Numbered from the stretch's first letter, positions 16,985 through 28,042 are shown. The stretch is 64,000 nucleotides of DNA from an uncultured Candidatus Saccharibacteria bacterium (GCA_964579635.1 CAZOFV010000004.1:817-64816), one strand, 5' to 3'. The notes: generated by a model from the sequence alone, not told the origin. Numbers and translations: made by a program.

Positions 16985-18343
16985 CTAATTATCGCTAACC
17001 TGAACAATTGAAATTTTTTCTTCGTTTGTTGGGATGTAGCGAGCCCAAAAAGGATTAACCGAAAGGGTTGCGGTTTTAATCCCTTTATGGCTCGTTAGTA
17101 AAGCGTTAAATTCATTCCTTGGTTTACCAGCAACATCTTTCTTCAGTTTATCAAAATCTACAACAGCCTCAGCTGTTGCCACGCCGTTTAAGGTAAATTC
17201 TAGATTTGTTACTTCAAGTATAGGTGTGTTATTGTTACCAAAAGCAAAAGTAAGGTTTTCTGTATCTTTTAGAGTAATACTATCAACATCTTTCATTAAA
17301 TAATTTGTTTTCTTTAAAACCTCTTTTGCTAACAAATCTTTCGGAAGTAATATTCCAACGTAAGTTCCTTTTTCTTTAACAATAACTCCACTTTCGTTCT
17401 TAACATCATCTTTTGTTTCAAAAGAAACTTCTGATGCTTCTTTAAACAAAACAAATCCTTCTGGTATTTGAGATGAAACTTGCCTTGTTAAAGAATCTTT
17501 AATGGAAGTCCTTAGTTCATTTCTCGCTGTGTTAATGGCTGCCGGAGAAGCTGTTTGAACACTACCAACATAACCACCCTTTATTTCACCTTTAGATCTA
17601 GCGTAAAACTTGCTGTATCTCGGATCACCTTTAAAGCCTGTAACAGTGAAATCGGCTAATCCGATGTTGTATTGTTCTCCCGGCTTGTCAGCATAAATAG
17701 AAACCTCAACCGATCCAGGAACCATTTCGCCGTTTACAGTCTTAAGACCTGGAACAACTACACTATCTACAATTCGGTATATCTTACCGTCTGTAGTTTC
17801 AAGTCGAGTATCTTTAAGTAATTTCTGAGTCGCGGTGCTATAAGCATTGTAAATTACCACCCGACCAGTGGCTTTTTCTGAAACATCCCTGGTTCCAGTA
17901 GAAGCAACAAGCTTACTTCCTTCTTCAGAAAAATTAACAGTTTCAAAATAAAGATTTGCTTTTGAGTCACTTTTCTTAGCCGCAAAACTACCTGAAACTT
18001 GAATTTGTTCTGATTTTGGGACAATTTTTAAATCTGCTCCAGAAAATATTACAGAAATTATTATATAAAAAGTAAAAATTACAACAGTTGGAACTGAAAA
18101 CCATGCTGTTTTCTTTATAAGATTCTTTGTTTTACCGACATTTTCGTTAGTAATTTTGTCGCCACGATGAATAGCTTGTTCTTTTAAAATATGCTCAACT
18201 TCTTTTTTCTTCGGTAAGATTTTTATTTCTCTATTTTTTATTGGAGTATGCTTGGCCTCCCCTTTCTGTAAAACATCAGAAAGCGGCCTTCTCTTATCAC
18301 TATGATGAAACATAACATCGTTTAAAATTCTCTTTTCCTTCAT
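16985..18343 (-). CDS. hypothetical bitopic membrane protein
   Basis: 452 aa with a basic cytoplasmic N-terminus of about 90 aa, a single TM (WFSVPTVVIFTFYIIISVIF) and a large extracytoplasmic domain. No family recognised. Confidence 0.6.
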   Translation of the reverse strand: MKEKRILNDVMFHHSDKRRPLSDVLQKGEAKHTPIKNREIKILPKKKEVEHILKEQAIHRGDKITNENVGKTKNLIKKTAWFSVPTVVIFTFYIIISVIFSGADLKIVPKSEQIQVSGSFAAKKSDSKANLYFETVNFSEEGSKLVASTGTRDVSEKATGRVVIYNAYSTATQKLLKDTRLETTDGKIYRIVDSVVVPGLKTVNGEMVPGSVEVSIYADKPGEQYNIGLADFTVTGFKGDPRYSKFYARSKGEIKGGYVGSVQTASPAAINTARNELRTSIKDSLTRQVSSQIPEGFVLFKEASEVSFETKDDVKNESGVIVKEKGTYVGILLPKDLLAKEVLKKTNYLMKDVDSITLKDTENLTFAFGNNNTPILEVTNLEFTLNGVATAEAVVDFDKLKKDVAGKPRNEFNALLTSHKGIKTATLSVNPFWARYIPTNEEKISIVQVSDN

Positions 18344-18359
18344 ATTTAGATTATATCAT

Positions 18360-19577
18360 CTAGTCTTGTTCAAGACGAAAGTTTCCGTTATTGCTATGAA
18401 TAATATAGAAAACCCCTATTCCTAAAAATGTATCTATTTCCTCCTTTTCAAAAATGTGTTTTCCTCTTGTATTAAAAAGATTATTTGTATCAACAACAGA
18501 AAATGGTGTGTGGGTCATAACATACTGACTAAAACTTTCTTTTTTTATACCGTCGACCAGCCATTTTTTAATATCATCGTCAGATGTAAGAAAAACCTGA
18601 TCTGGTAGGTAGAAGGTATCTGCCAATTTAGCTAAAGATTTTTCAAAAGAAACAACCCATGAATCAAATACCTCAGAAAAAGCCTTCTCCATTTTTAAAC
18701 TTACCTCTTGGCTTGTCTTACCCTTAAAAAAAGCTCCCAACAAAGAAATAATTTCTTCTGCTGGCCTATGTAGAGACGAAGATAATCTACGAAAAATCGT
18801 GTTTCTTCCCAAGGGAAAAGATGTTATCTCAAGCAAAGCGCCATTCAAAACAAATGCGATGTCTGTCACCTCCCCACTAACGTCAACCAAAAGGGCATCG
18901 TCAAATTTCGGGTAAAGCTCACGGGCTGCAAAAAAATACGCCAAAGGAAAAGTTCCAAAAACAATTTCAATTTTAGGAAAAACATTTTTAACGGAAGTAC
19001 TAAATGCCTCTAAAACAATCTCTGGGGCAACGCTTAAATATAGGGGCATTTCGATAGTCTTTACCTTTTTACCAAAAGGATTCTCTGTCTCATAGCCATT
19101 ACATTTTAATTGAACTATATGCTGTTCAATTAAAACCAAATTATCTTCTTCTGCTGCTTTTTTAAATCTCCCCTTTATGTGTTCATTCTTGAATGCATTA
19201 CTTTCTTTTTTAACCAACTCTAAAAATAATTCCTCCGTAAAGATAAACGGATCGCGCTTACGCAAATTAACAACTCGTGTTTGAGATGCATACCAAGGAG
19301 AAGCTAAAATTAAATAAGCTTTTTTAATAGGATAATTTAAATCCTCTTTTATTTTTTTTGTCGCATTTTCAATACTTTTGGCGACAGTTTTCGTGAAGCG
19401 GTCAAAACGTAAATGTTCTTGAAATGGAATATTTTCTCTATGTATTTCTTTAAGTGTCCCCTTATCTATGACGTTGTTTTTGTTATTAGAAATTTCTGCG
19501 ACCGCAACACCAATACTCCCATTTCCAACATCAAATAAAAGAACAAACTCCTTATTATTTTTTGAAAAAAATCCCAT
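18360..19577 (-). CDS. actin-like (ASKHA superfamily) ATPase, FtsA/PilM/Ppx-GppA-like
   Basis: Phosphate-1-like LLFDVGNGSIGVAV near the N-terminus and phosphate-2-like VDVSGEVTDIAFV later; 405 aa. The precise family is not resolved. Confidence 0.45.
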   Translation of the reverse strand: MGFFSKNNKEFVLLFDVGNGSIGVAVAEISNNKNNVIDKGTLKEIHRENIPFQEHLRFDRFTKTVAKSIENATKKIKEDLNYPIKKAYLILASPWYASQTRVVNLRKRDPFIFTEELFLELVKKESNAFKNEHIKGRFKKAAEEDNLVLIEQHIVQLKCNGYETENPFGKKVKTIEMPLYLSVAPEIVLEAFSTSVKNVFPKIEIVFGTFPLAYFFAARELYPKFDDALLVDVSGEVTDIAFVLNGALLEITSFPLGRNTIFRRLSSSLHRPAEEIISLLGAFFKGKTSQEVSLKMEKAFSEVFDSWVVSFEKSLAKLADTFYLPDQVFLTSDDDIKKWLVDGIKKESFSQYVMTHTPFSVVDTNNLFNTRGKHIFEKEEIDTFLGIGVFYIIHSNNGNFRLEQD

Positions 19578-21463: not shown

Positions 21464-21597
21464 TTTTCCTATTGTAATACAATTAAAACTATCTGAGCAA
21501 ACACAGTGAGAATACTAAGATCAGATTACTCGTTACTGTCACTTGGAGGCTTCGCCTCCAAGTTGGGAGATAATCTTTTTACATGAGGCGGACTTTT

Positions 21598-23880
21598 CTA
21601 AAACTCCTCAACTCGAACCCTACAATCCACCCTACATCTCGCAGGATTCTCACCTTTAGAAGGTTGACAGATTCCATTACCACAAGAGGTGTTTGAACTA
21701 CAGGAAGCATTGATTCCTCCGTATTCGCCAGCACAAGTCCATGTCCATGAAGAAGGAGTTCCTCCTTCTGGTAAAAAGTTGGTATTTGATGGTAATACAG
21801 TAGGTCCTGGTAATCCAACTGTATTACAGAGATTTGATGTTGGTTTCTTTTGAGATGGTATCCCGTTGGCAGAACCGCAGACTCCATCTACTGGGTTATT
21901 AACATTTACTGTTATCGTGCGAGAAGGACAGTTGGTTGACCATAAGCCCATGTTGTCTTGAGCTCTAAAGTAGACAGTGTAGGTTCCAGCAGAAAAAGAT
22001 CTAACGAAACTTACCAAAGAACTAAGTAATGTTCCGGTAGAGCAGTTTCCACTTCTCCATTCATAACCAACAACTGTGCCATCTGCGTCTGTTGCTGATC
22101 CTGTAAACTGCTGGGTTTGATTTTCAAATATGGTGATATCGATTGCTGGGCTGACAATTGATGCGGTTGGTGGTGTAGCTGGGATACAAGAGCTGGTACT
22201 ACTTTGCCAGATGAATAGTGGTGCACAGGTATTACAGCTTACTGGGTTGTTTGCTCCGTTATTACATATTCCATTGGTACAGCCGCCATTACTACATGTA
22301 GCACAAGTGCTTCCATTCCAACCAAGTGGGGTAGAACAAGTGTTGCATGTTGGGTAGTTGTTTGCGCCATTTGAACAAGTTGGAGTAATTGTGAAAGAAC
22401 TGAATGGAGACCAACCGCTGTATAGTCCATTGGAGCTATTGTAAGCATATCCAGAAAGAGTGTTGCTGTTTATCGGTGAAGTGAAGTTTGTGTTGAAAGT
22501 TACGACGTAAGAGACAGTTCTAGTGTTTCCTGATACTGAAGTACTGCAAGACACGAGGTTGATATATTCTGGACCATAACCATTGTAGATTGTTGCAGAG
22601 CCACCACCAGAACAAGCTATTGGTGGTATTTTGTATAATCCTCCGAAGAAGGTAAATCCAATTGATGACCATCCTAGATATCCACGATAGTAACCAGCGT
22701 TCACTCCTTGGTAATTTACTAAAGCGAGTTCGTCGGTAATGAAGGAACCGCCGCCGTAGTTAGAAGCTGTTGAGGTAATGGTGTATTGATTGGTTGCGTT
22801 AGTTAGCACTGTACCACTACTGATAGTGACGTTTGTCATAGTTGGAAGAGGCGGAGATACTGTGAAGTTGGTTGTTGACCAACCAGAACCAGCCCAGACA
22901 GTGTTGTAGCAATATGCAGAAATAGTATGAGCTCCTGGACTAGTCATGGCTCCCGCATAATATGTTCCGGAGGTTGTGTATCCGGCGACTAAATATGTAG
23001 ACCAATCAAGTAGTAAATAACAGTAGTAGCCGTTTGTGGAGGAAAGAGTAAATCCTGGGTTGGCACCATAAGGTACTGGATTTTGCGAAACGGAAGCAGA
23101 TGCGGTGGGAGGATCATAGGTCCAGTAAACAACAACAACGCCCTGCGCGCCATCACCAGCGTAAGTGGGGGTCCCCCAGTCGCAGGTGGCGTTGGAGCCA
23201 AACACTTGGCTGGCAAACACTCCTCCTCCACCACCACCACCTCCTCCACCAGATTGTGGATAGACTAAAGGTGACCCACCACTCCATGCGCCACACGTGC
23301 ACGACGTCTCATTGCAATCATAAAGAAGGGTACAGGTTCCGGCGGTGGCCGCTGAGCCCCCAGCACCTCCAGCACCTCCAGAGCCACTAGCGCCACCGGC
23401 GCCACCAGTAGTTGCCCATCTACTTGGTGGCCAAGAACCATACGAACCGTAACTAGCTGTCCCGTAACCTCCATACCCCGGGGAACCGCCCGTCTGACCA
23501 CCGCCACCGCCATACGCAACCACTGGCCCAATAAGAGAATATCCACCATCACCACCAGGACTTGATGCACCAGACTCACAGTGGGGAGCACCGCCATGAA
23601 CACCGCCCGGGCCAACAGTAACCCAATAAGACTGACCACCTGTTACCGAAAAAGACCCGACACTATAACCTCCTCCTCCGCCACCAGCACCAGCACCTTC
23701 ATTGGTACCACCAGCACCAGCTCCACCACCACCAACTACTACTGCGGTTAGAGAAGACACTCCTGTTGGCACGGTAAAGGTCCCACTGCTAGTAAAAGTA
23801 TATGATTCGGCAAGTGAAATGCTCGGCATCACTGTGAGCAAAACTACTGCAACAATAACCGTAGAGATTATTTTTTTCAT
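21598..23880 (-). CDS. large secreted cell-surface protein with a polyglycine-rich N-domain, Cys-rich repeats, a PKD-like domain and a conserved Cys-containing C-terminal module
   Basis: Signal peptide MKKIISTVIVAVVLLTVMPSISLA. Gly-rich segment at aa about 40-250, including a G10 run. TCxxC-type Cys-rich repeats at aa about 500-555. PKD-like motif SATDADGTVVGYEWR. The C-terminal 200 aa are paralogous to the C-terminus of the 1122-aa neighbour. Confidence 0.8.
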   Translation of the reverse strand: MKKIISTVIVAVVLLTVMPSISLAESYTFTSSGTFTVPTGVSSLTAVVVGGGGAGAGGTNEGAGAGGGGGGYSVGSFSVTGGQSYWVTVGPGGVHGGAPHCESGASSPGGDGGYSLIGPVVAYGGGGGQTGGSPGYGGYGTASYGSYGSWPPSRWATTGGAGGASGSGGAGGAGGSAATAGTCTLLYDCNETSCTCGAWSGGSPLVYPQSGGGGGGGGGGVFASQVFGSNATCDWGTPTYAGDGAQGVVVVYWTYDPPTASASVSQNPVPYGANPGFTLSSTNGYYCYLLLDWSTYLVAGYTTSGTYYAGAMTSPGAHTISAYCYNTVWAGSGWSTTNFTVSPPLPTMTNVTISSGTVLTNATNQYTITSTASNYGGGSFITDELALVNYQGVNAGYYRGYLGWSSIGFTFFGGLYKIPPIACSGGGSATIYNGYGPEYINLVSCSTSVSGNTRTVSYVVTFNTNFTSPINSNTLSGYAYNSSNGLYSGWSPFSSFTITPTCSNGANNYPTCNTCSTPLGWNGSTCATCSNGGCTNGICNNGANNPVSCNTCAPLFIWQSSTSSCIPATPPTASIVSPAIDITIFENQTQQFTGSATDADGTVVGYEWRSGNCSTGTLLSSLVSFVRSFSAGTYTVYFRAQDNMGLWSTNCPSRTITVNVNNPVDGVCGSANGIPSQKKPTSNLCNTVGLPGPTVLPSNTNFLPEGGTPSSWTWTCAGEYGGINASCSSNTSCGNGICQPSKGENPARCRVDCRVRVEEF
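23221..23250 (-). repeat. in-frame (GGN)10 triplet repeat encoding a Gly10 run
   Basis: Plus strand reads tcctcctccaccaccaccacctcctccacc, which encodes GGGGGGGGGG (aa 211-220 of the 760-aa protein). Confidence 0.8.
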
Positions 23881-23943
23881 TTCATCTTTATATCACTCAA
23901 CATATTTTGACTATTCACAGATGCTTATCTTGATTGTTGTTTT

Positions 23944-24483
23944 TTATCTTACTTGCACTTCCCCACCAACAAGGGATTGAATATTTATTCTCGTAGCCAC
24001 GAACGTTTTTAAGCTTGATATATCAACAGAAGAAAAAGCAACAAGAATATCTCCAACTTTAATATCTTCAAGTGCAACCCCAACTCGAGTAAAAGGCTCT
24101 GGTGGTATTGTAAGCGTAGTTGTATTTTGTTTTTGCTTTTCGGCAAAGTCCGCTAAATCCTTTTTTATTGACTCAGAATCTTTTTGAATAAGATTTTCAA
24201 TAACAGTGGCCTTATCAACAGTCACGACGATGGATTCTGTTGGATCTCCCGAGATAACCTTGCTTGGCATTTTCCTTGCGTCTTTAAGAAAGATCTCTTT
24301 ATCAGATATTTTTTCAACAGTACCAACAGCCATGTGTTGTTCTAATTGTTCCAATCCTGTGTTTTGTGTCTTGGGAGCAGTCTTTATATTTGAGCCACCC
24401 GTATAGACATAAAAAACCGTAGCGAGAATAGCAATTACACCAATAACAGCAGTGGCACTAATTATTTTTTTATATTCAGCCAT
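23944..24483 (-). CDS. hypothetical N-terminally anchored membrane protein between the two surface-protein genes
   Basis: 179 aa with a single N-terminal TM (IISATAVIGVIAILATVFYVY). No recognised domain. Confidence 0.55.
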   Translation of the reverse strand: MAEYKKIISATAVIGVIAILATVFYVYTGGSNIKTAPKTQNTGLEQLEQHMAVGTVEKISDKEIFLKDARKMPSKVISGDPTESIVVTVDKATVIENLIQKDSESIKKDLADFAEKQKQNTTTLTIPPEPFTRVGVALEDIKVGDILVAFSSVDISSLKTFVATRINIQSLVGGEVQVR

Positions 24484-24673
24484 ATTATTGTTTTTATTTA
24501 TTGATCTTTATTTTAACACACAACTATTATGTTTATATTGGCAATTGTGCATAAATATAAATTATTAATTCTTACTGTAATACAGGCAAAAATATCTGAG
24601 TAAATATAACAAGGATAGTAGTATTAAATTACTAATTTCTATCACACTTAAAAACAAAAACTTTAAATGACTT

Positions 24674-27600
24674 CTAAAACTCAAAAAACTTAACCTTGCA
24701 ATCTGCCCTACAAGTAGATGGGTTTTCACCTTTAGAAGCCTGACACTTATCGTCACCGCACGATGTTCCTAACTGACGGCATACACCCTCTGAATCACAT
24801 ACTGTACCAACTGAACTACACGAAGCATTTGAGCCATTATATTCACCAGCACAGGTCCATGTCCAAGATAGCGCAGGGTTGTTTTCAGGAAGAATATTGA
24901 TATCTGTGGGTAGAACAGTTGGACTTGGTAAGCCTACTGTGTTACAGAGATTAGAGGTTGGTTTCTTTTGAGTTGGAACGCCGTTAGCAGAGCCACAAAC
25001 TCCTGGTATTGGATCTGGTGTAGTAACGGTCAATCGACGATATCGGCATGGTGATGACCATGCCCCGGAATCATCTTGGCCCCTGAAAAAAATCCAGTAT
25101 GTTCCGGGAACAAATGAACGAACAAAACTTGTTAAAGAACTAATGAGTGTGCCGGAGGTGCAGTTATCGAGTCTCCATTCATAAGCCACTATAGTACCGT
25201 CAATATCGGCGTCTGTGGCCGCACCAGAAAATTGCTGTGACTGGGAGCTGTTTATTGTGATGTCTGTAGCGGGGCTAATGATTGTCGCTGTTGGTAATTT
25301 GTTTTTATACGCATAACAGGTAGGATTTGCTCCATTTACCCCACGACACTCCCACTGATAACGATCAAGAAGGTTCCAAACATAACCCGGAGTACCTGTA
25401 TTGCAAAGCCCAGAAGTTGGAGCAGTTGTTAACCTTGTAGTCCCATTAGCTGGGCCACAAGAACCGTTAACTATGGATGTTACTATGTTTATAGTCTTAA
25501 AAACGTTTGCAGATTGATTATTATTAGAATCTTGTGTTCTTACATAAAAAACTTTCGTTCCAGTTGTGCCCCATGTACGACTAATTGTTTGAGGGGTCCC
25601 AGACGGAACATATCCAACCGCAGGAGCCCATTCGTCAATAATAGTGTCGAAGTTCCAGTCAAAGCCATACCTAACATTATCACCATCAATATCTGTTGCG
25701 GTAGCTGTAAAACTTACGGGAGTATTCACAAGACTAGGATCCTGATAAACAAGAGTTGGTGTTGATGGTGGATTACTTGGAGGAGCTGCAGTAAATGAGA
25801 AAGAAAGACTCATGGCTTGAACATCGAAATTAAGACCACCGGAACGCCCATATTGACCTGTTTGTCTACTGTCATAACTAATAAATTGTCCCGCTCGAAG
25901 AAAACCACTTGTAGCTGGGTATGAAACATACATATTAATTGGTTGTCCAGAAGAAGCTGTAACTAAACAATCAGAATAAAAAGGACTATAGCTCACAGTT
26001 GGAGCACACCACGTAGGATCACCAGGGTACAGCGAACAGAAAAAGCTGTTATATGGAGCAACTGTCCTCACACCACCTAAAGTAGCTCCACAGCTAAGAC
26101 CGCTTCCAGAGACAGAAAATGTTGGAGGTATGGTGGCCATATCCCCTTGATAAATAATGTAATACCAACCACCAGAAACATAATTAATGTTGGCACACTC
26201 ATTATATGTTGTACAAGATTTTGCAGAGGTGTCCCATCGTCCATACGGAGAGTCATATTCACCACCTGTGCCAACCCAAGAACTTGCGCCACTATTTGGA
26301 TTCCAGGTCACCCTAACAGTAGCGCCGGTTGGAATTGAGGATCCATCAAGTATCTCTGCCCCAAAAAGAGTTACAGTGGCATTGTATATCACCGTCGCTG
26401 TTATTCCCGCGACCCCGTAACCAGTCGGATTAGAAGACCCCTCACTAAAACCAAGTATCGGCAAGCTTTGTGTTGTCCCAACGCTCTTTGCTTCTGCTAA
26501 TAGTGGCACCGTAAAAGAAGACCCGAGAAAAATAAGTATTAACACAAGAGAAATTGGCAATTTTTTCCTACCACGAAAAACTCTCCACAAAATATAAGCG
26601 ATAGACAAAAGAACCAAACCACCTAAAACAATAGCGCCCGTATTCGTTTTTTTAGGACAGATGTCAGGGTTAATATTCCGACAATCATAAACCTCTTTTA
26701 CTTCCTCAACTACTTCTCCTTTGTGTTTAAGTGTGGCAGTTAAGGAAAATGTTGTGTAATTTTTTTTCGGAGTAAACAGATCTTTTACCCCCATCATTGT
26801 ACTTGTAATATCTCCAGCATACTCATAGGAATGGATAAATCTCCCATTTTCATCCCTTAGTGTTAAAGTCAAGGTGTTATCTTTAACAAAGCCGTCACTA
26901 ACCGCGTGAACGCAAGAAAAAAGCGTATTTTCCTTATTTTTTTCAAGTGGATAGCTCATAATACTTGGAAAATTTATTCTTGTTTCCTCAATGCCATCAC
27001 GAACAAAACGAATGTTAAGAATTGATTTACTAGAAAGATCTCTGGTCTCTACTACAAGATAAGAAACAATCGCCCCGGTTGGTAAGGCGGTATATGAAAT
27101 TTCTTTGGTCTCTCTTGGCTTTAATTGCACAGATTCTGTTTTTATATCCTTAAGATTTTCTTCACGAAGACCATCCCAGTTATATAATTTCCAAACGACA
27201 GGGACTGTCACTGATTCGTTTTTCGGGTTTACAATCTTAACAACAACGCTCACTGGATCATCTTTTGAAAAATGAAGGGGGAAGGCGGCAAAACGATGTG
27301 GTTGCTTGTTCAAAGTAACCGTACTCTTGTCAAAAGCGACAACGCCAATCTTGCTATCATTAACAACAGAAAAATAAACCTGATTACCAACTACGTCATC
27401 AGTAAAAGAAAGTCCTAAAAGGTTATAGCGCTTAGCGGTCTGAAAAAAGAAGGTTGCAATATAATCTCCAGCCGGAGCGTTATCTGGAACTTTCCATAAA
27501 AATGACGTCTTCTTACTTCCTTTTGCTGGGAGTGTAAAGGTTTCGTTGAGTGGAAACTGGTCAACTAGCTCAAACCCATTTTCTTGGTCAAAATTTTCTC

Positions 27601-28042
27601 CCGCTTGTTGTCTAAATATTTTTACGTAAACTTGACCATCAACTATAGGATAAGGGTTGGCATTTTTTATTTCACCAGGAAACCCGACTGTCGCACCGGG
27701 AACAGTTTGGGAAAGCGTAGTCGGAAGATCAACTTGAACAGAACCAAAATGATAATAATCAAAACAATCAACTGTTCCTAGAGGAGAAGCTCCAGATGTA
27801 TCGACACCAGAGGGATTGCCTAAAAGAATAAAAGAAGTCATTTTCTCTTTTTCTTCATTCGTCCAAGTCTTTTGGTCTTTCTTAAAGATAGCCTGTATTT
27901 CGACGGGGGCTTCTTTAAGATTAACTGTTGGCGCACCAGGCGACGAAGGAGTTGTCACTTGGGCTTGCGACGATGGTGCTACAATAAAAAACAAAAAAAA
28001 GAAAATAAAAAACAGAGATAAATTAAAAAATTTAAAGTTCAT
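24674..28042 (-). CDS. giant secreted cell-surface protein (1122 aa) with an internal TM hairpin, two PKD-like repeats and two copies of the conserved Cys-containing module
   Basis: Signal peptide MNFKFFNLSLFFIFFFLFFIVAPSSQA. Internal hydrophobic pair TGAIVLGGLVLLSIAYILW-RVFRGRKK-LPISLVLILIFLGSSFTVPLLAEA. PKD-like motifs TATDIDGDNVRYGFDW and AATDADIDGTIVAYEWR. Two G(S/V)CG(P/S)ANG…LCNT…W.C modules. The C-terminal roughly 200 aa are about 70% identical to the 760-aa protein. Confidence 0.8.
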   Translation of the reverse strand: MNFKFFNLSLFFIFFFLFFIVAPSSQAQVTTPSSPGAPTVNLKEAPVEIQAIFKKDQKTWTNEEKEKMTSFILLGNPSGVDTSGASPLGTVDCFDYYHFGSVQVDLPTTLSQTVPGATVGFPGEIKNANPYPIVDGQVYVKIFRQQAGENFDQENGFELVDQFPLNETFTLPAKGSKKTSFLWKVPDNAPAGDYIATFFFQTAKRYNLLGLSFTDDVVGNQVYFSVVNDSKIGVVAFDKSTVTLNKQPHRFAAFPLHFSKDDPVSVVVKIVNPKNESVTVPVVWKLYNWDGLREENLKDIKTESVQLKPRETKEISYTALPTGAIVSYLVVETRDLSSKSILNIRFVRDGIEETRINFPSIMSYPLEKNKENTLFSCVHAVSDGFVKDNTLTLTLRDENGRFIHSYEYAGDITSTMMGVKDLFTPKKNYTTFSLTATLKHKGEVVEEVKEVYDCRNINPDICPKKTNTGAIVLGGLVLLSIAYILWRVFRGRKKLPISLVLILIFLGSSFTVPLLAEAKSVGTTQSLPILGFSEGSSNPTGYGVAGITATVIYNATVTLFGAEILDGSSIPTGATVRVTWNPNSGASSWVGTGGEYDSPYGRWDTSAKSCTTYNECANINYVSGGWYYIIYQGDMATIPPTFSVSGSGLSCGATLGGVRTVAPYNSFFCSLYPGDPTWCAPTVSYSPFYSDCLVTASSGQPINMYVSYPATSGFLRAGQFISYDSRQTGQYGRSGGLNFDVQAMSLSFSFTAAPPSNPPSTPTLVYQDPSLVNTPVSFTATATDIDGDNVRYGFDWNFDTIIDEWAPAVGYVPSGTPQTISRTWGTTGTKVFYVRTQDSNNNQSANVFKTINIVTSIVNGSCGPANGTTRLTTAPTSGLCNTGTPGYVWNLLDRYQWECRGVNGANPTCYAYKNKLPTATIISPATDITINSSQSQQFSGAATDADIDGTIVAYEWRLDNCTSGTLISSLTSFVRSFVPGTYWIFFRGQDDSGAWSSPCRYRRLTVTTPDPIPGVCGSANGVPTQKKPTSNLCNTVGLPSPTVLPTDINILPENNPALSWTWTCAGEYNGSNASCSSVGTVCDSEGVCRQLGTSCGDDKCQASKGENPSTCRADCKVKFFEF

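Follow-up and report, generated by a model that had tools for sequence, protein, structure and literature searches.

A probable variable cell-surface gene island in a Patescibacterium encoding a predicted two-part envelope-protein precursor

Introduction

Glycoprotein precursors with internal signal peptides are known from the bunyaviruses (Gn-Gc) and the flaviviruses (prM-E), in which a first ectodomain is followed by a transmembrane (TM) anchor, a cytoplasmic loop and a hydrophobic signal for the second ectodomain, which ends in a cut site of the small-x-small type. The same succession of elements is predicted for the product of gene B, one of three neighboring genes (A, C and B), all on the minus strand, that make up the locus described here, which is located in a stretch of DNA of 64,000 nt (CAZOFV010000004.1:817-64816; hereafter “the window”, by whose numbering all positions are given). 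B has no kinship of sequence or fold with the viral precursors, and it also differs from them in that it is cellular, that its cut is predicted, and that its second product is devoid of a TM anchor in bacteria.

Two-subunit arrangements are also described for prokaryotic surface layers (S-layers). In Sulfolobus the layer is built from the membrane stalk SlaB and the canopy SlaA (PMC10903991), and in C. difficile the SlpA precursor is cleaved into two associated subunits (PMC8881574). These systems resemble what is proposed for B in several respects: an outer subunit is borne by one close to the membrane or wall, the domains are β-rich, the two parts are encoded by adjacent genes or by one precursor, and the exposed parts are strongly variable. 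B shows, however, no detectable homology to them and has neither SLH nor CWB2 domains, and whereas SlpA is cut by the protease Cwp84, the cut in B is predicted to be made by signal peptidase. A third point of comparison is provided by the Ig-like/PKD surface proteins (e.g. the PKD domains of collagenase and of the M14-like peptidase 4xed, or the archaeal surface-layer protein 1l0q), which are without the combination of a TM helix and an internal signal peptide; unlike in these proteins, the N-domain, the central domain, a four-cysteine (4-Cys) GxCGxANG module and the short C-terminal motifs of B (here called tags) belong to no curated family.

Outside a few cultured Saccharibacteria (PMC11665869), little is known of the way in which the ultra-small and host-dependent Patescibacteria construct their surface and become attached to their partners. 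The present locus points to a phylum-wide protein family of ~1,200 sequence clusters together with a testable model of its processing, with the cleavage-site peptide, candidate interaction pairs and the tag motif serving as handles for metaproteomics, structure modeling and cryo-electron tomography; should the B family turn out to be a true envelope scaffold or attachment device, studies of host range would gain a useful marker in it. In the reading favored here, which we hold to be probable, with considerable room for doubt, the region would be a variable cell-surface gene island of a Paceibacteria/Parcubacteria-type Patescibacterium, in which two independent cassettes lie by chance side by side between eamA and alaS, one of them being B, a processed precursor, and the other consisting of C and A.

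Gene B as a Proposed Bipartite Precursor

Gene B (24674-28042, 1122 aa) is predicted to encode a bipartite envelope-protein precursor. In the model proposed here, the N-terminal signal peptide (residues 1-27; 27962-28042), which is of the Sec type by its hydropathy, with the predicted site SQA↓Q after residue 27 (the arrow marking the cut) and with A27 being nearly invariant in the family, would export the N-domain (residues ~88-465; 26648-27781), which is composed of three tandem β-sandwiches. Transfer would then be stopped by TM helix 1 (residues 469-486; 26585-26638), a family-conserved segment defined by hydropathy and serving as the anchor of the N-terminal half, with the basic loop that follows (residues 487-494, RVFRGRKK; 26561-26584) being predicted to remain in the cytoplasm. 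The second hydrophobic segment (residues 495-518; 26489-26560), interpreted as an internal signal peptide with A-E-A at its end, would restart export, and signal peptidase I is predicted to cleave B behind A518. The products would be a type I membrane-anchored “base” of ~490 aa and, associated with it, an “outer” subunit that is secreted and comprises two β-sandwiches and a PKD domain, followed by variable modules and by a conserved tag at the C-terminus.

The evidence for this model comes from the family as a whole. In 167 long forms two hydrophobic segments are present, joined by a loop with a median length of 11 aa that contains 4 K/R and 0 D/E. The predicted cut site is conserved in the 45 sequences compared, with A or V at position -3 (38/45), E at -2 (32/45), A at -1 (44/45), K at +1 (39/45) and S at +2 (38/45), and is preceded by a helix breaker (P/G) at -6/-5. 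In B it reads AEA↓KS (residues 516-520), the cut being predicted between A518 and K519, and the sequence continues from K519 as KSVGTTQSLPILGF...

The two halves are moreover not always joined. Of 74 N-domain genes that were examined in genome loci, 43 have the fused form of B and 12 (plus 2 probable ones) are split, the remaining short forms having another neighbor or none visible. In the split forms the first half, ~450-540 aa in length, has a signal peptide, the N-domain, a TM helix as C-terminal anchor and a basic tail, and the second half contains the central domain and mostly begins with an ordinary N-terminal signal peptide of its own; its gene is the next one on the same strand, at a gap of -8 to +94 nt. 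These signal peptides end at the position of the conserved site in the fused proteins, as exemplified by ...LMPEVVEG↓KSV in locus L044, ...AQEVYA↓VKS in L045 and ...SPMVSEA↓SKG in L043; in one locus (L057) a fused copy is followed by a split pair. Since the halves also exist as separate genes, the hairpin of B is read as a stop-transfer helix followed by an internal signal peptide. A preliminary description of the locus had B as simply secreted, which does not agree with the conserved TM helix and internal signal peptide that it carries.

An alternative model has to be considered, in which B is left unprocessed, as one polypeptide whose two-helix hairpin sits in the membrane and tethers both ectodomains on the outside. 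An uncleaved hairpin predicts an identical topology with no extra assumption, the hairpin itself is conserved, and the fused halves may need 1:1 proximity. Two further points count against cleavage, namely that the conservation of K-S-V could reflect merely the first β-strand of the central domain, and that signal peptides and cut site were judged by hydropathy and the small-x-small pattern. On the other side, the small-x-small site and the helix breaker upstream of it are conserved in 38-44 of the 45 sequences, and the halves are separate in at least 12 genomes, where the second segment serves as an N-terminal signal peptide of the ordinary kind. The unprocessed form is on balance regarded as possible, albeit distinctly the less probable of the two, and the processed precursor is retained as the preferred model of B.

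Family and Domain Architecture of B

Homologues of B include more than 170 proteins of 900-1500 aa, covering 70-98% of its length and originating from Moran-, Yonath-, Kaiser-, Vogel-, Taylor- and Nomurabacteria as well as other Patescibacteria. Among 1.84 billion cluster representatives, 1,236 were matched by a profile of the N-domain, of which 1,070 reached E ≤ 1e-10; about 20% of the matches are short forms and the others long ones. At the genome level 153 B-family loci were confirmed, with record titles of the Patescibacteria type in all except a few. B reached the cut-off of no Pfam or NCBIfam model, A and six members of the family likewise had no model in NCBIfam, and by its sequences the family thus appears to be Patescibacteria-wide, uncurated, and without a model in either database.

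The architecture of B is kept in ~120 homologues. In the family alignment the N-domain has 34-36 invariant columns, and its characteristic motifs are CFDYYxFGSVQVD, NLLGLSFTDD, RINFPS and YDCxxIDPxxCP; it is modeled as three β-sandwiches with a predicted local distance difference test score (pLDDT) of 87.9 and a predicted template modeling score of 0.82. The second half is modeled as two β-sandwiches and a PKD domain, the former corresponding to the central region (residues 519-~755; 25778-26488), in which the motifs TDISWxGTG..DSPYGxW and LSC..G..CTVTS are found, and the latter to PKD domain 1 (residues ~758-858; 25469-25771; ATDIDGDNVRYGFDWN...), which matches solved PKD domains in both sequence and fold. 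Neither a catalytic nor a lectin fold was found in the models of B. The PKD domain is followed by the first 4-Cys module (residues ~863-913; 25304-25456), delineated by inspection as GSCGPANG...LCNTG...WECRG...C, which forms a small β module in the AlphaFold2 model (pLDDT 82-92), has no Pfam model, and shares its GSCGPANG 4-Cys motif with 48 of the 214 family members examined. A second such unit of PKD and 4-Cys modules lies toward the C-terminus, and the two units represent the only internal repeat in B. In the long forms of the family the PKD domain is generally followed by variable modules and then by the conserved C-terminal tag.

The genomic context was examined by clustering the neighborhoods of 68 B loci. 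A dedicated B operon was ruled out, as the best neighbor cluster was present in 10/68 loci. By reading only, the neighbors of B comprise what we take to be a coiled-coil protein whose C-terminus resembles lysozyme (in 10 loci, in 4 of them immediately upstream) and, presumably, a PilB/GspE-type ATPase in 5 loci and FtsA-FtsZ in 5 loci. The clusters, none of them universal, are represented in loci L023, L044, L026, L014, L030 and L042, in L007, L010 and L063, and in L021, L034 and L044.

Attachment or Envelope Coat

The data support the view that the proteins of the locus are secreted or membrane-associated, modular, uncharacterized proteins of the surface type. In agreement with the preliminary description, no well-characterized adhesin, S-layer or tail-fiber family claims the whole of A or the whole of B, and by descent only their PKD and Gly_rich_2 domains appear to belong to curated families. 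The several thousand residues, long repeat arrays and matching Pfam families of RTX/Bap-type adhesins are not found in these proteins. The two also differ from LPXTG proteins, with A ending in ...CRVDCRVRVEEF and B in ...CRADCKVKFFEF, neither of them with a C-terminal hydrophobic segment.

Display at the cell surface, either for attachment to host or partner cells or as an envelope coat, is what these properties point to, and attachment may be reasonably inferred by analogy. Ig-like/PKD proteins with signal peptides are among the highest-expressed secreted genes in Paceibacteria-type parasites of methanogens (PMC10936435), and in Saccharibacteria there are essential surface proteins for which a role as adhesins is predicted (PMC11665869), neither paper being specific to this family. 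It has to be noted that several observations weigh against the favored reading. Neither a pocket for a ligand nor a lectin fold nor any domain with a relation to hosts was identified, so that the term “adhesion” rests on fold class and analogy; no conserved partner gene emerged from the neighborhoods of the 68 B loci, for which reason the context is silent on function; the open reading frames (ORFs) of the related loci were called by a crude longest-ORF heuristic; and the AlphaFold2 confidence is low for the C-terminal module of B, which makes the role of a cell-proximal “handle”, proposed for this module below, a conjectural one.

An alternative assignment would make the B family a structural coat, in the form of an S-layer-like two-component lattice of membrane stalk and outer canopy, with A as an accessory on it. 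Such a coat would resemble SlaA/SlaB and SlpA in the respects set out above, and the divergence and exchange of cassettes described in the next section would fit an exposed coat as well and do not discriminate between the two. Against it stand the results of the searches, in which A, B and C showed no SLH, CWB2 or other wall-binding S-layer domain (Pfam/NCBIfam at E ≤ 1) and the literature yielded no paper in which an S-layer protein of Patescibacteria is identified, and no evidence of a lattice or of a high abundance of B was seen. A structural coat of this kind is viewed as rather unlikely, and the variable surface island with its two cassettes remains the favored reading.

Two Cassettes at Two Chromosomal Sites

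The three-gene arrangement is not conserved in relatives of the locus, an outcome that by the preliminary description itself would count against its reading: B lies upstream of C in only 1/9 contexts of C, which is the window itself. The site between eamA and alaS is occupied by B-C-A in the window, by B alone in L005 (“Parcubacteria group bacterium LiPW_30”), and by C-A in L001/L002, L003, L087 and L091. A second site is located between the gene for an LTD-like secreted protein of ~1050 aa, which ends in ..NWKYGVAQ or ..FKYGVAP, and a gene for a Wzy_C/TPR membrane protein (L084:4794-13866; L088:719-7381). It holds B in L084-L086 and L004 and C-A in L088 and L089, and the spacers on both sides of it are 92-100% identical whichever cassette sits there. 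The B proteins at the second site are 88% (L084-L086, the closest orthologue) and 65% (L004) identical to B of the window.

The spacer between B and C in the window is composite, in that its first part resembles the spacer between B and alaS in L005 (84% over 51 nt) and its last part the one found before C in L003, which indicates that B and C-A are discrete units that are merely juxtaposed in the window. They also diverge quickly: most of the flanking proteins share 90-100% identity with those of L005, as against 66% for B, and in comparison with L003 the flanks are mostly 84-99% identical, with A being at 66% and C at 44%. The closeness of the flanks to L005, together with the Paceibacterota label of an A homologue, assigns the window to a Patescibacterium of the Parcubacteria/Paceibacteria type. 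B and C-A are separate, exchangeable and fast-diverging cassettes, each of which may be found at either of two chromosomal sites. As for the mechanism of the exchange, a simple inversion between the two common modules was ruled out, since each site keeps its flanks on either side, and border repeats were not detected at the second site.

These results bear directly on the earlier proposal that B, C and A constitute one functional unit, in which two paralogous adhesins flank a membrane partner. It is true that in the window the three genes neighbor one another on one strand and that A and B have a C-terminal module in common; nevertheless, the single occurrence of B-C-A, the presence of B alone at the same site in L005, the mutual replacement of B and C-A at two sites, and the composite spacer make such a unit hardly probable. 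Two independent cassettes, the second of them being C-A, are preferred instead.

Genes A and C

Gene C (23944-24483) encodes a small membrane protein of 179 aa, whose sole hydrophobic segment by hydropathy, at residues 5-31, resembles a signal anchor, in agreement with the N-anchored topology proposed previously. Only 7 homologues were detected, which have an invariant PPEPFTR motif. An A-type gene directly follows C in the window and in L001/L002, L003, L088, L089 and L092, a truncated gene follows it in L087, and the contig ends after it in L091; in the most distant context the next gene is that of another secreted protein. By its gene order, C is linked to A and not to B. There is no credible match to C in Pfam or PDB and no model in NCBIfam, and an identity as TusA was rejected, the matches being weak and probably spurious. 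By analogy with the pairing of base and outer subunit, C might act as a membrane partner or anchor of A.

Gene A (21598-23880, 760 aa) encodes a secreted modular protein with homologues, one of which is labeled “Candidatus Paceibacterota bacterium”, and its signal peptide has the predicted site SLA↓E after residue 24. The head of the mature protein (residues 30-253; 23122-23793) is a Gly_rich_2 domain (PF21722; 39.1 bits at a Pfam cut-off of 24.3, model positions 1-225 of 226), a family on which nothing specific was found in the literature, and residues 15-282 match PHROG 863, a phage family of the “tail” category, at E 2.8e-12. A differs from the Gly_rich_2/PHROG 863 proteins in being chromosomal and Sec-exported and in having a Patescibacteria-specific stalk and C-terminal module. 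The middle of the protein (residues 255-568; 22177-23118) is β-rich, probably containing Ig-like domains, together with Cys-rich CxNGAxNxxxC repeats; it has a weak Pfam match to Bact_surface_Ig-like, and separate parts of it match different Patescibacteria proteins (P0009, P0011 and P0014-P0018). In one homologue (P0006) the last 504 aa are 87% identical to A, and an unrelated N-terminus of 138 aa is present instead of Gly_rich_2, which indicates that the head of A is exchangeable on a conserved stalk; the second cassette would accordingly present a replaceable head. The gene of P0006 (L090:87-3331, a Logan contig of SRR28495930) lies directly downstream of an AbiEii toxin-family gene, which represents a third genomic context.

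A prophage origin of A or of the entire island, in which A would be a phage tail-fiber or receptor-binding protein, is most improbable, for although the N-terminal domain of A (and only this domain) matches PHROG 863, its heads are swapped as in tail fibers, and one relative adjoins the AbiEii gene, no phage genes are found nearby, the neighbors are housekeeping genes, A has a Sec signal peptide, and two scans of viral contigs contained no relative of A or B.

C-Terminal Module Common to A and B

The ends of the two large proteins are homologous, residues 571-760 of A (21601-22170) and 917-1122 of B (24677-25294) being 61% identical over 206 aa (BLASTP, E 3e-76), and the similarity extends to the DNA, as had been noticed before, with 75% identity over ~480 nt and best blocks of 76-79%. 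Each module is composed of a PKD-like domain, a GVCGSANG module (4-Cys in B) and a Cys-rich tail, the module of A ending in RVRVEEF and that of B in KVKFFEF. No other part of the two proteins was aligned by BLASTP, so the description of A and B as paralogous is valid for the last ~200 residues and is to be dropped for the remainder, which is unrelated. The PKD-like assignment, also made previously, is backed by weak matches, with the Pfam scores lying under the cut-offs both for K319L-like_PKD (16.2 and 15.0 bits; cut-off 27) and for Big_7 (22.8 and 16.7 bits; cut-off 24.1), and with PKD/Big domains of PDB being matched weakly at E 1.4e-4 to 1e-2, including those found with residues 570-660 of A.

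In a tree of the modules, those derived from A and those derived from B are mixed, with no clustering by gene type. The A module of L003 groups with the B modules of L004 and L005 at 74-78%, and the A module of the window is 76% identical to the B module of L004 and 62% identical to the B module of the window. This intermingling indicates that the C-terminal module has been transferred among gene types; the module is also found at the end of P0013, whose N-terminal architecture is different. Recent gene conversion between A and B in this genome was ruled out, since the two modules of the window (62%) are the most divergent pair in the tree. The module thus appears to be lineage-specific and mobile between gene types, and in the favored model it would act as the cell-proximal “handle” of A and B, from which the exchangeable N-terminal heads would point outward.

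The repeat in the DNA extends past the stop codons into two non-coding copies on the minus strand, one located directly upstream of alaS (21466-21542) and one downstream of B (24569-24645), which is related to the spacer before alaS; the two are 71% identical over 77 nt. The last 40 nt of the first copy are 95-100% identical to the spacers before alaS in L005 and L003.

C-Terminal Tags and an Archaeal Copy

Most of the complete long forms of the B family end in one of three tags, ..C(D)(F/Y)NWKEVAP, ..G(E/V)IEE(I/T) or ..P.F.EF. The tags of A and B themselves, ..EEF and ..FEF, are encoded at 21601-21640 and 24677-24715, respectively. The same tags are carried by unrelated secreted proteins encoded next to B genes and by several A-related proteins; tag-bearing examples are found in L044, L051, L057 and L081 and among proteins P0008-P0019. 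With a loose pattern, a tag was found in 1.6% of the ORFs without hydrophobic segments, in 13.8% of other exported ORFs of at least 300 aa, and in 43.6% of the B-family ORFs, which corresponds to an enrichment over cytoplasmic ORFs of ~9-fold for exported and ~27-fold for B-family proteins.

The tags resemble the sorting signals of sortase and archaeosortase substrates in being a short C-terminal motif common to many secreted proteins of the same lineage; they differ from these signals in having no hydrophobic segment, basic tail, LPXTG or PEP motif. No curated sorting-signal model of NCBIfam matches them, and nothing specific on a C-terminal sorting signal of the candidate phyla radiation was found in the literature.

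One B-family gene, which encodes a protein of 1682 aa with the full architecture, is located on a contig labeled “archaeon isolate Bin_44_1” (L040:9647-14695; SBBR01000093.1). It sits between the genes for aEF-2 and EF-1alpha, and the contig also carries those for RpoA' (with an intein) and RpoA''. The contig is truly archaeal, the matches to aEF-2, EF-1alpha and the RNA polymerase subunits A'/A'' being above or near the NCBIfam cut-offs. The archaeal homologue has no tag, and ends in a hydrophobic segment and a basic tail (...PEVPSMLAVLLGLLIVAIAGRKLGR), as do sortase and archaeosortase substrates at the corresponding position. This suggests a transfer between a Patescibacterium and an archaeon, with the tag having been replaced by a membrane anchor. 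The anchor of the archaeal protein would fit the idea that the position of the tag serves attachment or sorting.

A much broader proposal would hold that the B family is a major envelope or attachment scaffold of the Paceibacteria, that the tags represent a new docking or sorting signal, by which otherwise unrelated secreted proteins such as A would be fastened to this scaffold or to the wall, and that cassettes are swapped, even with a DPANN-type archaeon, thereby varying the surface with regard to host range or phage evasion. Taken as a whole this proposal is regarded as doubtful, and indeed quite unlikely.

Other Features of the Locus

The three minus-strand ORFs of 760, 179 and 1122 aa are intact at the positions originally assigned to them, and the signal peptides of A and B, which consist of a hydrophobic N-terminus followed by a small-x-small site according to hydropathy and inspection, were likewise borne out. 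The designation of the two proteins as “giant” is an overstatement at 760 and 1122 aa. They are the only proteins of the window that are large, exported and Cys-rich at the same time, with a Cys content of 3.9% in A and 2.3% in B, as compared to 0-1.4% in the other listed ORFs of the window. The genes adjoining the locus are alaS, eamA, mgtC and mnmA. The guanine-cytosine content amounts to 47.6% at 22001-24000 vs ~37% elsewhere in the window; as this rise overlaps the Gly-rich part of A with its GGN codons, it provides by itself no evidence of a foreign origin.

A perfect inverted repeat with a 9-bp stem and a 3-nt loop (CTTGGAGGC-GAA-GCCTCCAAG; 21542-21562, minus strand) lies 36 nt past the stop codon of A and is without a T-run. 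It is possibly a terminator lacking this element; the scan for terminators did not pick it up. The counts returned by the scan for promoters and terminators were no higher than in shuffled sequences, which makes the scan uninformative on transcription units.

Downstream of alaS, two conserved ORFs are located on the minus strand at 18360-19577 (405 aa) and 16985-18343 (452 aa). They are 72-83% identical to their relatives, clearly below the surrounding housekeeping genes, and the precomputed annotation of these relatives contains no Pfam match. The start of the 405-aa protein (FDVGNGSIGVAV) resembles, by its look only, what we take to be the N-terminus of a putative actin-fold protein of the FtsA/PilM-like type.

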